The position numbers and the translations under genes are program-made. This document shows, in pieces, positions 2,532-52,714 of a DNA stretch of 64,000 nt. Below the pieces are notes generated by a model. That model saw only the letters and a program-made list of their open reading frames with translations, was not told where the DNA came from and made no database searches. Origin of the DNA: Enterobacteria phage vB_EcoM_IME340; sequence record MH051916; one strand, given 5' to 3'. How positions within the stretch are numbered: position 1 is the stretch's first letter; the number at the start of each line of letters is the position of its first letter.

Positions 2532-2628
2532 ATATGCTTTAAGAATTATTTGTTATTATTAACTCATATCGCACTGATTAATACCCTCTATCATCAAGGG
2601 TTCTTGCTTGAGAGCCTTTGTTAATAAT

Positions 2629-2701
2629 TGGGAATTAGCCAAGTTGGTAAGGCACTGGATTTTGATTCCAGGATGCAAAGGTTCGAGTCCTTTATTCCCA
2701 G
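2629..2701 (+). tRNA. tRNA-Gln (anticodon UUG), CCA not encoded
   Basis: Manual fold: acceptor TGGGAAT/ATTCCCA, anticodon stem CTGGA/TCCAG with loop TTTTGAT, T-loop GGTTCGAGTCC. Confidence 0.8.
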
Positions 2702-2702
2702 C

Positions 2703-2789
2703 GCGAGAATGGTCAAATTGGTAAAGGCACAGCACTTAAAATGCTGCGGAATGATTTCCTTGTGGGTTCGAGTCCCACTTCTCGCACCA
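2703..2789 (+). tRNA. tRNA-Leu (anticodon UAA), long variable arm, CCA encoded
   Basis: Acceptor GCGAGAA/TTCTCGC, anticodon loop CTTAAAA, T-loop GGTTCGAGTCC, 3' ACCA. Confidence 0.8.
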
Positions 2790-2794
2790 AATTT

Positions 2795-2868
<74 letters not shown>

Positions 2869-2878
2869 ATTTAATTTA

Positions 2879-2952
2879 CTCCGTGTAGCTCAGTTTGGTA
2901 GAGCGTCTGCTTTGGGAGCAGAATGTCGCAGGTTCAAATCCTGCCGCGGAGA
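2879..2952 (+). tRNA. tRNA-Pro (anticodon UGG), CCA not encoded
   Basis: Acceptor CTCCGTG/CGCGGAG, D-arm GCTCAGTTTGGTAGAGC, anticodon loop TTTGGGA, T-loop GGTTCAAATCC. Confidence 0.8.
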
Positions 2953-2954
2953 CT

Positions 2955-3044
2955 GGAGGCGTGGCAGAGTGGTTTAATGCACCGGTCTTGAAAACCGGCA
3001 GTCGCTCCGGCGACTCATAGGTTCAAATCCTATCGCCTCCGCCA
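2955..3044 (+). tRNA. tRNA-Ser (anticodon UGA), long variable arm
   Basis: Acceptor GGAGGCG/CGCCTCC, anticodon loop CTTGAAA, T-loop GGTTCAAATCC, 3' GCCA. Confidence 0.8.
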
Positions 3045-3049
3045 GTTTT

Positions 3050-3125
3050 GCTGATTTAGCTCAGTAGGTAGAGCACCTCACTTGTAATGAGGACGTCGGC
3101 GGTTCGATTCCGTCAATCAGCACCA
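3050..3125 (+). tRNA. tRNA-Thr (anticodon UGU)
   Basis: Acceptor GCTGATT/AATCAGC, D-arm GCTCAGTAGGTAGAGC, anticodon loop CTTGTAA, T-loop GGTTCGATTCC, 3' ACCA. Confidence 0.8.
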
Positions 3126-3126
3126 A

Positions 3127-3201
3127 GGCCCTGTAGCTGGAAGGTTCAAGCAAGCGACTCATAATCGCCAGATGGTGGTTCAATTCCACCCAGGGCCACC
3201 A
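3127..3201 (+). tRNA. tRNA with CAU anticodon (Ile2/lysidine type as in T4, or Met-like)
   Basis: Acceptor GGCCCTG/CAGGGCC, anticodon loop CTCATAA, T-loop GGTTCAATTCC, 3' ACCA; T4 carries an Ile tRNA with this anticodon. Confidence 0.7.
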
Positions 3202-3210
3202 AATTAATTT

Positions 3211-3297
3211 GGGGAGTTATCCCGTAGAGGTAGCGGTGTGGACTGTAAATTCATTGTCATTGCGACTCGGGTGGTTCGACTCCATCACTCCCCACCA
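3211..3297 (+). tRNA. tRNA-Tyr-like (anticodon GUA), class II with long variable arm
   Basis: Acceptor GGGGAGT/ACTCCCC, anticodon stem GTGGA/TTCAT with loop CTGTAAA, T-arm GGTGG-TTCGACT-CCATC, 3' ACCA; D-stem is only 3 bp so the call is less secure. Confidence 0.55.
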
Positions 3298-3301
3298 ATT
3301 T

Positions 3302-3376
3302 GGATGTGTAGCTCAATGGCAGAGCGATCGCCTGTTAAGCGATTGGTTATAGGTTCGAATCCTATCACGTCCGCCA
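3302..3376 (+). tRNA. tRNA-Asn (anticodon GUU)
   Basis: Acceptor GGATGTG/CACGTCC, D-arm GCTCAATGGCAGAGC, anticodon loop CTGTTAA, T-loop GGTTCGAATCC, 3' GCCA. Confidence 0.75.
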
Positions 3377-3380
3377 AATC

Positions 3381-3456
3381 CGAGGCATAGCTCAGAAGGA
3401 AGAGCAAGGACCTTCTAAGTCCTAGGTCGTAGGTTCGATCCCTACTGCCTCGACCA
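3381..3456 (+). tRNA. tRNA-Arg (anticodon UCU)
   Basis: Acceptor CGAGGCA/TGCCTCG, D-arm GCTCAGAAGGAAGAGC, anticodon loop CTTCTAA, T-loop GGTTCGATCCC, 3' ACCA. Confidence 0.8.
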
Positions 3457-3472
3457 ATTAAGTGAGGAAAAT

Positions 3473-3823
3473 ATGAAAGGTAATGTTTATTTAGTAGTTC
3501 ATGATTTAACATTCTATTTTAATCACAATGACACTGTTATTTCTGAACGTGTAATTAATTTACTTTATCAGCATGCAGATTATGTTTATGTCGAAAACGA
3601 ATACGGTCATTGGCAATTTCTCAAAAATCGTTCATTTGGTTTAGATGGTTACGAATACTTTGAACGTAAAGACCTTTTAGATAAAATTCCATTATCTACA
3701 CAATATCAAAATCACAAGTCTTTACATAAATGTCGGCTAATTCGAAATGCTGAATCTGCTTATGAAGCAATTGATTTATGGCGTAAACGCCGTGAACAGA
3801 TTGATGCTTTAAAAGAATACTAA
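3473..3823 (+). CDS. hypothetical protein
   Basis: 116 aa ORF starting 17 bp after tRNA-Arg with SD GAGGAAAATATG. Confidence 0.55.
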   Translation: MKGNVYLVVHDLTFYFNHNDTVISERVINLLYQHADYVYVENEYGHWQFLKNRSFGLDGYEYFERKDLLDKIPLSTQYQNHKSLHKCRLIRNAESAYEAIDLWRKRREQIDALKEY

Positions 3824-3829
3824 GAAACC

Positions 3830-4129
3830 GGGTCGCTACCGGTAAGTCGTCGGACTGATGTTCCCTGGAGTATAGTTTCTCCCACAGTTTTACTGTGTTC
3901 TGATTCTTTACTATCACAGCAGAAACGGCGCACAGAATTATCGATTCGAGGAAATATCTTTGCCGTAAGCCGAGTAGCGTTTTTGACGGAACGTTCGGAT
4001 ATGGTCGAGATATGGCCTTTTAAAAATATTAAGTAGCGTCAACTGCTTAATAACCGGGTTCGAATCCCGGCGTTTCGTACAAACACTTGCCTTAGCAGGT
4101 GGAACCCCGACAAGGTTGCCGCAAGGCTT
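3830..4129 (+). ncRNA. candidate structured stable RNA(s); contains a tRNA-like T-arm
   Basis: About 300 nt with no credible ORF in a dense genome; CCGGG-TTCGAAT-CCCGG T-arm motif at 4054-4072; ends at an intrinsic terminator; T4 encodes stable RNAs (species 1 and 2) beside its tRNAs. Confidence 0.35.
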
Positions 4130-4156
4130 AGCCCCGACCGAAAGGTTGGGGCTTTT
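4130..4156 (+). terminator. rho-independent terminator
   Basis: GCCCCGACC-GAAA-GGTTGGGGC hairpin followed by TTTTT. Confidence 0.7.
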
Positions 4157-4247
4157 TAGTTTGAATCACATAGAGAATGCTGTTACGGATAATAACAAAG
4201 TAATAAATAATTAATAACCAACCGATAAATTATTTCAAGGATTTTAA

Positions 4248-4811
4248 ATGAAAACCTATGCCGAGTTTTTAACCGAAGCAGCAAAATTACCATCTGAAGC
4301 AGATCTTACTAAAGTATTCTTCCACTTGGACCCAAAAGACCGCGGCGATTTTCTTAAGTGGAAAGCTAAAGCTATTGAAATGTATAACATTGATAATAGT
4401 TCTTTTACGATGAGTCAAGAAAATAAATTCAATAAAGCATTTTTCAAAATTTCTAAGAAACTGGCATCTGGCGCTCAGGTTCCTAAATCTGCCTTAGCTA
4501 CTCCTGAACGTGCACCTGTCAAAATTTCTAAGAATATGTTCGACACTAAAAAATACGTTAATGCTTTGAATAAAGCTCTTGATGCATTGGATGATGCAAA
4601 GAAGGCAGCCCGTGATCTTCAAGATGTGTACACCGATTTTGATCGTAAAACTAAAGGTTCTATTTCAAATAGCGAACGCAATAGTGTAAGTGTTTATTCT
4701 GATAGTCTTGATGTTCTTGGCGATGCGTATACTGAAATTAAAAATCGTATTAACACCGCATCTAAGCTAAAAGCTGCCGCAGAAGCTATAATAACTAAAC
4801 TAGATAAATAA
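4248..4811 (+). CDS. internal-protein-like protein (MKTYAEFLTEA N-terminus), 187 aa
   Basis: Capsid-targeting N-terminus; size similar to T4 IpIII but location differs. Confidence 0.6.
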   Translation: MKTYAEFLTEAAKLPSEADLTKVFFHLDPKDRGDFLKWKAKAIEMYNIDNSSFTMSQENKFNKAFFKISKKLASGAQVPKSALATPERAPVKISKNMFDTKKYVNALNKALDALDDAKKAARDLQDVYTDFDRKTKGSISNSERNSVSVYSDSLDVLGDAYTEIKNRINTASKLKAAAEAIITKLDK

Positions 4812-51286: not shown

Positions 51287-52714
51287 GTGGTAGAAATTAT
51301 TCTTTCTCATCTCATATTTGATCAAGCTTATTTTTCAAAAGTTTGGCCATATATGGATTCAGAATATTTTGAAAGTGGTCCAGCTAAAAATACATTCAAA
51401 TTAATTAAATCTCATGTTAATGAGTATCATAGCGTTCCATCTATTAATGCGTTAAATGTTGCATTAGAAAATAGTTCATTTACTGAAACAGAATATTCTG
51501 GTGTAAAAACACTTATTTCAAAACTAGCCGATTCTCCAGAAGACCACAGCTGGTTAGTAAAAGAAACAGAAAAATATGTTCAGCAAAGGGCGATGTTTAA
51601 TGCTACGTCTAAAATAATTGAAATTCAAACTAATGCTGAGCTTCCTCCGGAAAAACGAAATAAGAAAATGCCGGATGTTGGTGCTATTCCTGACATCATG
51701 CGCCAAGCATTATCAATTTCATTTGATAGCTATGTTGGCCATGATTGGATGGATGACTATGAAGCACGTTGGCTATCTTATATGAATAAAGCTCGTAAGG
51801 TTCCATTTAGACTCAAAATTCTAAATAAAATTACTAAAGGCGGAGCTGAGACTGGAACACTGAACGTTTTAATGGCTGGTGTTAACGTCGGTAAGTCATT
51901 AGGTCTGTGTTCATTGGCAGCAGATTATTTACAGCTCGGTCATAATGTTCTTTACATTTCAATGGAAATGGCAGAAGAAGTCTGTGCTAAACGTATTGAC
52001 GCTAATATGCTCGATGTTTCTCTTGATGACATTGATGATGGGCATATTTCTTACGCTGAATATAAAGGAAAAATGGAAAAATGGCGTGAGAAATCTACTC
52101 TCGGCCGTTTAATCGTTAAACAGTATCCTACTGGTGGAGCAGACGCTAATACATTTCGATCGCTTTTAAACGAATTGAAGCTCAAGAAGAATTTTGTTCC
52201 AACAATCATTATTGTCGACTATCTAGGTATATGTAAATCTTGCCGCATCAGAGTTTACTCAGAAAATAGTTACACAACTGTTAAAGCTATCGCAGAGGAA
52301 TTGCGTGCTCTGGCTGTTGAAACCGAAACTGTTCTTTGGACTGCAGCACAGGTTGGTAAGCAAGCTTGGGATTCTTCTGATGTTAACATGAGCGATATTG
52401 CAGAATCCGCCGGTCTTCCAGCAACAGCCGATTTTATGCTTGCGGTCATTGAAACCGAGGAGTTAGCAGCTGCTGAACAACAACTCATTAAGCAAATTAA
52501 ATCACGATATGGTGATAAGAATAAATGGAATAAGTTTTTGATGGGTGTTCAAAAAGGAAATCAGAAATGGGTAGAAATTGAACAAGATTCTACTCCAACT
52601 GAAGTGAACGAAGTAGCAGGTTCACAACAGATACAAGCTGAGCAGAATCGCTATCAAAGAAATGAATCTACTCGAGCTCAGTTAGATGCTTTAGCAAATG
52701 AATTAAAATTTTAG
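51287..52714 (+). CDS. 41: replicative DNA helicase gp41 (DnaB-like)
   Basis: GTG start after AAGGAG; Walker A GVNVGKS; 475 aa. Confidence 0.9.
   Translation: MVEIILSHLIFDQAYFSKVWPYMDSEYFESGPAKNTFKLIKSHVNEYHSVPSINALNVALENSSFTETEYSGVKTLISKLADSPEDHSWLVKETEKYVQQRAMFNATSKIIEIQTNAELPPEKRNKKMPDVGAIPDIMRQALSISFDSYVGHDWMDDYEARWLSYMNKARKVPFRLKILNKITKGGAETGTLNVLMAGVNVGKSLGLCSLAADYLQLGHNVLYISMEMAEEVCAKRIDANMLDVSLDDIDDGHISYAEYKGKMEKWREKSTLGRLIVKQYPTGGADANTFRSLLNELKLKKNFVPTIIIVDYLGICKSCRIRVYSENSYTTVKAIAEELRALAVETETVLWTAAQVGKQAWDSSDVNMSDIAESAGLPATADFMLAVIETEELAAAEQQLIKQIKSRYGDKNKWNKFLMGVQKGNQKWVEIEQDSTPTEVNEVAGSQQIQAEQNRYQRNESTRAQLDALANELKF

Follow-up and report, generated by a model that had tools for sequence, protein, structure and literature searches.

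The species 1 and species 2 RNAs of bacteriophage T4 are textbook features that have been known since the 1970s. In the T4 reference genome (NC_000866), they are annotated as two misc_RNAs (features T4s001/T4s002) located right after the tRNA-Arg gene: rnaD, for the species 2 RNA, and rnaC, for the species 1 RNA. The presence of rnaC and rnaD in a T4 relative is expected, and the long-standing question is that of their function. Both RNAs were detected by Northern blotting in T4 infection and classed as late, with function unknown, in a 2022 omics study (PMC9697503); the function was also given as unknown in a 2010 review (PMC3014915) and still in a 2025 evolution study (PMC12685909). Here, we describe their counterparts in Enterobacteria phage vB_EcoM_IME340 (sequence record MH051916), using a stretch of 64,000 nucleotides (nt), hereafter referred to as the window, to which all coordinates belong. 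A sequence-only reading of the window had marked the interval 3830-4156 as a structured RNA with a tRNA-like T-arm and as a possible counterpart of the two T4 RNAs.

When aligned directly to NC_000866, the window matched both misc_RNAs, and near-identity was seen except in the central hairpin of rnaD. The rnaC orthologue occupies 3942..4081 (+), i.e., 140 nt from C1 through the ACA at the CCA position, as delimited by the T4 alignment and by our covariance model R1; it is identical to T4 rnaC at 137 of these 140 positions and has the same locus neighbours. The rnaD orthologue occupies ~3820..3934 (+), as judged from the T4 alignment, the folds of 23 variants and RNAalifold, its boundaries being inferred from the T4 annotation. 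Since the window aligns to T4 rnaD and rnaC, the entity is, on this alignment evidence, one that is known already, namely the T4 species 1 and species 2 RNAs, and the guess of a T4 counterpart was correct. The marked interval was also real, but its start was set ~10 nt too late: the rnaD homology begins at ~3820. The description as a structured RNA with a tRNA-like T-arm fits rnaC; however, the interval holds two RNAs plus a trailer and terminator instead of one RNA, and rnaD is a separate structured RNA that is not tRNA-like. We regard the interval as the distal end of the phage tRNA operon, composed of the rnaD and rnaC orthologues, a structured trailer and the operon terminator. Taken jointly, the identity, the architecture and the tRNA-like maturation of these RNAs are held here with high confidence.

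The locus is common to T4 and the present phage in position, gene order and strand: the RNAs lie downstream of a tRNA array ending with tRNA-Arg, and the trailer and terminator are alike. There are two differences. In T4, rnaD directly follows tRNA-Arg with no gene between them, and the homing endonuclease gene segB is found upstream of tRNA-Arg instead, whereas in the window an open reading frame (ORF) of 116 amino acids (aa) intervenes at 3473-3823 (phrog_3355; function unknown, no Pfam match), the stop codon of which overlaps the beginning of the rnaD homology. The other is that the central hairpin of T4 rnaD is of another sequence type. Megablast found the interval in 759 phage records.

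The sequence-only reading had further stated that no credible reading frame follows ORF 3473-3823, and this was borne out: the ORFs lying wholly within the interval (from the stop of that ORF to 4156, either strand) comprise 24-37 aa only, and two others cross its edges (73 aa, 3696-3917, −; 32 aa, 4116-4214, +). Many GenBank genomes carry 1-4 "hypothetical proteins" over rnaD/rnaC, and MK327946 labels rnaC as tRNA-Lys. These labels are probably annotation artefacts, by which many records mis-annotate the interval. That two or three small protein-coding genes really exist there, as the automated annotation of several records has it, is hardly credible, because no frame wholly inside exceeds the above lengths, the substitution pattern is that of RNA-helix covariation (see below), and T4 annotates RNAs at this locus.

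tRNA-like architecture of rnaC

The rnaC RNA has the topology of a cloverleaf, consisting of an acceptor stem, a ~65-nt arm closed by an AGG/CCU helix, a linker, a hairpin of 10 base pairs (bp) and a T-arm. The 5′ strand of the acceptor stem, CGAUUCG (3942..3948, +), pairs with 4071-4077 and is supported by compensatory changes. It is followed at the D-arm position by a long irregular arm (3949..4018, +) closed by a covarying helix of AGG (3949-3951) with CCU (4016-4018); the arm ends in a 5-bp apical stem (3978-3982 with 3989-3993, +), all five pairs of which covary, and in the hexaloop UUGACG (3983-3988). A single-stranded junction linker, UUUAAAAA (4019..4026, +; alignments A3 and A6), which gives a conserved AAAAU together with U4027, leads to the 10-bp hairpin (4027..4052, +), whose hexaloop is CGUCAA (4037-4042) and in whose stem 8 of the 10 pairs covary. 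The T-arm (4054..4070, +) is made of CCGGG (4054-4058), UUCGAAU (4059-4065) and CCCGG (4066-4070), and is supported by its sequence, motif statistics and covariation; the T-arm noted earlier at 4054-4072 is therefore present, but ends at 4070, 2 nt sooner. The last part (4071..4081, +; by alignment) contains the acceptor 3′ strand CGUUUCG (4071-4077), a discriminator-like U (4078) and ACA (4079-4081).

Ten matches to the T-loop motif GGTTCRANYCC are present in the window, always on the + strand, against 0.22 expected by chance: nine of them are in tRNA genes and one is in rnaC. ARAGORN made no tRNA call on rnaC, and Rfam has no family for rnaC or rnaD, its single nearby match being tRNA-Sec at 17.3 bits (gathering score 47, E = 1.9). 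Assignment of rnaC to transfer-messenger RNA (tmRNA) or to any known Rfam family was thus rejected, as nothing reached threshold in either program. With model R1, rnaC scores 164 bits and is the sole strong match in the window, i.e., it is single-copy; no second copy was found there, and a match at 51418-51538 (17.6 bits, E = 0.087) was treated as noise.

RNAalifold and the single-sequence folds agree on the above architecture in every clade, the exception being the unconstrained fold of one Klebsiella-phage sequence. The folding energy corresponds to z = -4.07, and none of 200 shuffles was as stable. A check by folding and covariance against relatives, which had been proposed for this interval, found the structure of rnaC conserved. 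In alignment A6, in which 26 distinct rnaC sequences from at least six named genera were fitted to the structure model, 93.8% of the cells are paired, as compared with 35-45% when the partners are slid by 1-3 columns, and compensatory changes occur in 22 of the 38 pairs, a number reached by 0 of 500 shuffles. The plain MAFFT alignments A3 and A5 give the same picture as the model-fitted A6: with 19 distinct sequences aligned by MAFFT, pairing is seen in 92-94% of the cells against ~40% after sliding, 13 of the 25 core pairs show compensatory changes, and again 0 of 500 shuffles match this. By region, the T-stem is 100% paired with two of its five pairs covarying; the AGG/CCU helix reads UGG/CCA in PM2; and the long-arm helices within the T4-type group are 96.7% paired, with three double changes.

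These data bear on the idea that the RNAs are decaying, functionless tRNA pseudogenes. The position in a tRNA array, the partial tRNA features, the tRNA-Sec match of 17.3 bits and the one tRNA-Lys label in GenBank would all suit such an origin, but it is very improbable: 682 of 749 records have an rnaC with at least 95% identity, at least six genera have kept it while each of its helices, and also a tertiary loop-loop contact, underwent compensatory changes, and no parent tRNA is recognisable. With respect to the last point, the acceptor and T-arm sequences were compared with 86 phage tRNAs, and no convincing match was obtained.

The loop-loop contact just mentioned concerns the two hexaloops. 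The apical loop UUGACG (3983-3988) and the loop CGUCAA of the second hairpin (4037-4042) complement each other exactly; these pairs are 99.4% paired and change in a compensatory manner, to UUGAUG/CAUCAA in Tegunavirus and to UUGGCG/CGCCAA in the Klebsiella group. Because the two apical hexaloops are complementary and covary, the "anticodon end" of rnaC is probably closed on itself by a kissing loop. The hairpin, the kiss and the apical stem together measure ~21 bp, and the proximal long arm measures ~20 bp; this agreement in length suggests that the lower body may consist of two parallel rods closed into a ring. The proximal long arm occurs in two sequence types that cross genus boundaries, and Kanagawavirus and Moonvirus contain both of them (in A6, L002 versus L111/L114 and L003 versus L112, respectively). 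Since the two types ignore genus boundaries, this part seems to act as a strut and not as a sequence-specific site. The same distribution suggests either that rnaC alleles have been exchanged horizontally or that two old lineages of paralogues exist.

Relative to a tRNA, the irregular arm of ~65 nt thus stands in place of the D-arm, and the 10-bp hairpin in place of the anticodon arm. In regard to the D-arm, the 3-bp AGG/CCU helix would be a fit, together with the GG that immediately precedes its 3′ strand, yet the "loop" is the ~65-nt arm. In regard to the anticodon arm, where a tRNA has a 5-bp stem and a 7-nt loop with U33, rnaC has a 10-bp stem and a 6-nt loop complementary to another loop. 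The GG at 4014-4015 may be an analogue of tRNA G18/G19. In the Q7622 lineage, this GG has become CG together with a change of the T-loop U55 to G; as a single event, the joint change is merely suggestive of a G18/G19-like contact.

The 3′ end after the acceptor stem is U plus NCA throughout. This triplet reads ACA in the window and UCA in TG1; the Klebsiella group and PM2 have a true CCA there. Both the discriminator-like U and the CA are invariant among the 26 sequences, although the window itself has U-ACA instead of an encoded 3′ CCA. Within the acceptor stem, A3-U70 alternates with G3-C70 and C1-G72 with A1-U72, and pairs 1:72, 3:70 and 5:68 show compensatory changes. In the stem of the window, 4:69 and 5:68 are both U·U mismatches. 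Both are resolved in TG1 and PM2, in which the stem is fully Watson-Crick/GU; pair 4:69 is Watson-Crick only there (U-A).

It could be supposed from these features that rnaC is a chargeable tRNA-like RNA, which would be trimmed, provided with CCA and aminoacylated, and which would then have a tmRNA-like role on the ribosome or serve as an amino-acid donor. In E. coli, tRNACys and tRNAGly have U73 as their discriminator, and some synthetases can charge acceptor minihelices. This precedent, the 7-bp acceptor stem, the invariant discriminator U, the CCA encoded in two clades and the T-arm favour the supposition. Nevertheless, we consider it quite improbable, in view of the lack of an anticodon loop, the A3-U70 pair in place of G3·U70, the lack of a tag frame and of a tmRNA call by ARAGORN or Rfam, the tandem U·U mismatches of the acceptor stem in most clades, and the T4-type end, which is ACA instead of CCA and which the T4 annotation stops short of the CCA position.

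Two other pairings or resemblances were considered and rejected. The tRNA-Sec match had prompted an acceptor pairing of ACGGAACG (3986-3993) with CGUUUCGU; other clades turn a G·U of this pairing into an A·C mismatch, and it was rejected because proper compensatory changes are instead found in the pairing of CGAUUCG, the true 5′ end. The linker contains CUUUUAA, which equals the anticodon loop of tRNA-Lys(UUU); mimicry of that loop was discarded, as its CCU pairs with AGG, no closing stem exists, and the U33-equivalent varies. In addition, a motif (G/A)AGUAGCGU occurs twice in rnaC, at 3972-3980 (long-arm bulge plus apical stem) and at 4031-4039 (the second hairpin's 5′ strand at its 3′ end, and on into the loop), the corresponding T4 motif being GAGUAGCGU, also twice. 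The repeat may be coincidental, since the type-2 clades do not keep it.

Distribution, rnaD and the transcription unit

Using relatives gathered by iterating BLAST with divergent members, we found rnaC in Kanagawavirus, Moonvirus, Tegunavirus, Gelderlandvirus, Mosugukvirus, a Klebsiella-phage group and an unclassified Citrobacter phage. It is present in at least six genera of Tevenvirinae, inside the tRNA cluster in every case. Several clades have it in a tRNA slot, where it begins 6-8 nt after the preceding CCA and/or is followed by the next tRNA within ~7 nt. The 7-nt spacer GAAUUAU between rnaD and rnaC in the window (3935..3941, +; from the alignments) resembles the 6-8-nt spacers of the other clades in length and A/U-richness. 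In Moonvirus, Gelderlandvirus and Tegunavirus, rnaC is located in the middle of the array and not at its end. In contrast, rnaD is confined to T4-like genomes, and the other genera carry rnaC without it. The reverse is seen in Dhakavirus-like IMG/VR contigs (L043, L087, L088, L095, L104), which keep rnaD, the trailer and the terminator and from which rnaC is precisely missing. The loss spans the spacer through the ACAAA tail, and rnaC behaves like a gene cassette in this respect. Because the Dhakavirus-like contigs have rnaD alone and other genera have rnaC alone, rnaC and rnaD are independent modules that are gained and lost separately.

Scans for wider homologues returned little. A metagenome scan gave T4-like copies and chance matches only, a genome scan gave one Patescibacteria match that is probably due to chance and had no score with the model, and a 15-mer scan for rnaD gave mostly chance matches. 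The tRNA arrays of other genera contain unannotated gaps of 260-600 nt (L002, 1152-1414; L105, 1974-2420; L106, 1268-1865). These do not match the rnaC model, and they may hold other stable RNAs or small ORFs.

The mutual positions of the modules are relevant to a purely cis-acting explanation, in which rnaC and rnaD would guide cleavage by RNase P and RNase E, protect the 3′ end of the precursor and persist as by-products with no function in trans. Probable co-transcription with the tRNAs, the proximity to the operon terminator seen in T4-type phages and the fact that the features of rnaC are those recruiting tRNA-processing enzymes are consistent with it. It is nevertheless unlikely, though it is the weightiest of the rivals: rnaC is found mid-array in the three genera named above, the Dhakavirus-like phages keep rnaD, trailer and terminator without rnaC, and the closed lower body (the apical stem, both hexaloops and the AAAAU) covaries across genera, which would be needless for a processing handle.

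Turning to rnaD, the 45 nt at its 5′ side and the 25 nt at its 3′ side are essentially identical to those of T4, and the overall identity is ~78%. It has a 5′ hairpin with the loop GUCGCUA (3827-3843, +) and a long hairpin (+), whose closing stem of 7 bp, GUCGUCG (3846-3852) with CGGCG-C-AC (3926-3933), is invariant. The distal part, ~3866-3915, is of a sequence type other than that of T4 and still folds as a hairpin. RNAalifold detected five covarying pairs; the closing pair of the 5′ hairpin alternates among A-U, G-C and G-U, and covariation was also seen at a U-A/A-U pair and at one base of the variable tip. The folding energy alone is unremarkable (z = -0.93). The identity is 60-80% in 515 of 740 records, and this low value is due to the central hairpin, which occurs in at least four unrelated sequence types. 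Such a hypervariable tip suggests a host-specific interaction. A possible intermolecular duplex of rnaD with rnaC had an energy inside the shuffle range, the method being unsuited to the question. In L063, L087 and L088, an extra short element (…GUCGUAUGAAGACUGAUUACCAGCAUUCACCGGCGCAAC…) stands after tRNA-Arg, ~60 nt upstream of rnaD; it resembles a miniature rnaD, with stem-B-like ends and without the variable hairpin.

Downstream of rnaC, a conserved 3′ trailer (4082..4129, +; fold z = -3.79) is composed of the hairpin CACUUGC/GCAGGUG (4084-4101) and two small hairpins. It keeps a conserved single-stranded GGAACCCCGACAAGG besides the 7-bp hairpin at 4084-4101, and it is kept even in phages without rnaC. 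The intrinsic terminator of the tRNA/stable-RNA unit (4130..4158, +) was identified by a terminator scan and is conserved across relatives: its hairpin (4130-4153) has 10 bp, of which 7 are G-C, and a GAAA loop, and is followed by TTTTT, as is usual for Rho-independent termination. The strong terminator at the end of the interval had thus been recognised rightly. The trailer and terminator could form a third RNA product, since they have the layout of a small RNA derived from a 3′ end.

It can be asked whether the products are regulatory small RNAs that act by base-pairing, the mRNAs of host or phage being targeted by rnaD, by the trailer or by such rnaC loops as are exposed. The conserved frame and hypervariable tip of rnaD would agree with this, as would the arrangement of trailer hairpin, terminator and U-tail, which is typical of 3′-end-derived small RNAs. 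A single-nucleotide polymorphism (SNP) in rnaD also alters growth on one host: as a convergent change in three lines, it raised the RBG virulence score of a T4-like phage on ECOR34 from 0.17 to 0.98 (PMC12685909). However, no target was found, no systematic target search having been made, and the conserved rnaC loops complement each other and covary together. We judge this explanation improbable.

The tRNA array upstream consists of 10 genes at 2629..3456 (+), as identified by ARAGORN and by Rfam tRNA matches, in the order Gln, Leu, Gly, Pro, Ser, Thr, "Met" CAU, Tyr, Asn and Arg. The gene called Met (CAU) by ARAGORN (3127-3201) stands after tRNA-Thr, where T4 has tRNA-Ile; on account of this position, it probably encodes an AUA-reading tRNA-Ile with a modified CAU anticodon. 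Upstream of the array, a T4 late-promoter consensus, TATAAATA, is found at 2283, and a MotA-box-like ATATGCTTTA at 2532. Neither motif occurs from 2533 to 4300, i.e., directly upstream of rnaD. Because a promoter motif is missing between the array and rnaD, rnaD and rnaC are probably co-transcribed with the tRNAs. The flanking ORFs (phrog_3355 and phrog_2280, both of unknown function) are uninformative as to what the RNAs do.

Proposed maturation and function

The tRNA-like top half of rnaC would let host RNase P and 3′ exonucleases excise it from the precursor, and such excision would give it tRNA-like stability; the cut at its 5′ end would also help to define the 3′ end of rnaD. CCA-adding and T-loop-modifying enzymes may act on it too. 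CCA repair of the tRNA type is conceivable, as there is a precedent in the T4 tRNAs without an encoded CCA, which are repaired by the host (PMC11143913).

Lacking an anticodon loop, and with a lower end that is probably sealed, rnaC would be unable to decode. We tentatively prefer the view that it is a non-decoding RNA with a function in trans: by its tRNA shape, it would serve as a ligand or decoy of some protein, of host or phage origin, by which the acceptor/T-arm half of tRNA is recognised. Its role would be accessory and host-dependent. In order of the weight given to them, the rivals of this view are the cis-acting explanation, base-pairing small RNAs, the chargeable mimic, pseudogenes and, lastly, small proteins.

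A more specific and more doubtful version can be formulated, because immune nucleases that read the acceptor stem, the T-arm and the CCA tail do exist (PMC12851939). In this version, rnaC might be a "locked" tRNA mimic, which would present an authentic acceptor/T-arm/elbow face with a sealed anticodon end and neutralise a host reader of the tRNA top half or 3′ tail, and the rnaD tip might provide a second, host-specific surface. As targets, an immune nuclease or toxin directed at tRNA would be a candidate, as would a factor that senses uncharged tRNA.

Several points weigh against the trans-acting, tRNA-like view of rnaC. The decoy idea is drawn from shape, and no partner or phenotype of rnaC is shown in the accessible literature. 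The loop-loop complementarity could work between two molecules, in a dimer, and not within one, and the covariation comes from few independent lineages. At the 3′ end, the rnaC of the window has ACA and not CCA; moreover, U73-A74 is where the RNA stops in the T4 annotation, and a CCA end may thus not exist in T4-type phages. At the 5′ end, RNase P cleavage at C1 is inferred, and rnaC as annotated in T4 begins 1 nt upstream of C1. Two U·U mismatches are present in the acceptor stem in most clades, and the Q7622 lineage has a non-canonical T-loop, UGCAUGC. Finally, rnaC is not essential, because some relatives are without it.

No comparative model of rnaC was found in Rfam or in the accessible literature, a body that does not include the structure papers of the 1970s. 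The comparative model is what the present analysis adds: a tRNA-like top half with an invariant U, CCA in some clades, a sealing loop-loop contact, and the independent gain and loss of rnaC and rnaD. If the locked mimic were true, it would give these old RNAs a function and would define a new class of RNA-based anti-defence.

Comparison with tRNAs and tRNA mimics

Compared with the canonical tRNA (RF00005), rnaC has in common a 7-bp acceptor stem formed by its ends, a 5-bp T-arm with UUCGAAU and a linker-free join of the T-arm to the acceptor stem, as well as a four-way junction, a slot in the operon, NCA/CCA after one discriminator-like base and a possible G18/G19-like contact with the T-loop. 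It differs in lacking a D-arm and a 7-nt anticodon loop, in its length of 140 nt, and in the ~65-nt arm and 8-nt linker within the junction. Like tmRNA (SsrA), it combines the tRNA "top half", i.e., the acceptor stem and T-arm, with the absence of an anticodon. RNase P processes the tmRNA at its 5′ end (PMC3985003). In contrast to tmRNA, rnaC has A3-U70 and not G3·U70, has no tag reading frame and no series of pseudoknots, and is much shorter.

The mascRNA of MALAT1, the tRNA-like RNAs of gammaherpesviruses, the Y-RNA domains of YrlA and the 3′ tRNA-like structures of plant viruses are non-decoding RNAs that use a tRNA shape for processing, stability or protein binding; for mascRNA, a tRNA-like architecture has been described. 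No sequence or model similarity was found between these mimics and rnaC, none of them has a two-arm body closed by a loop-loop contact, and in Y RNA the ends are at the opposite pole. With regard to the lower body, stem I of the T-box is a long arm that runs beside an anticodon-side helix, base-pairs with its loop and lies next to the tRNA elbow. rnaC, which has neither a riboswitch context nor a downstream regulated gene, is not claimed as a member of this class, and the likeness would be an architectural analogy only: what the T-box achieves with a separate tRNA, rnaC would achieve with both partners in one molecule.

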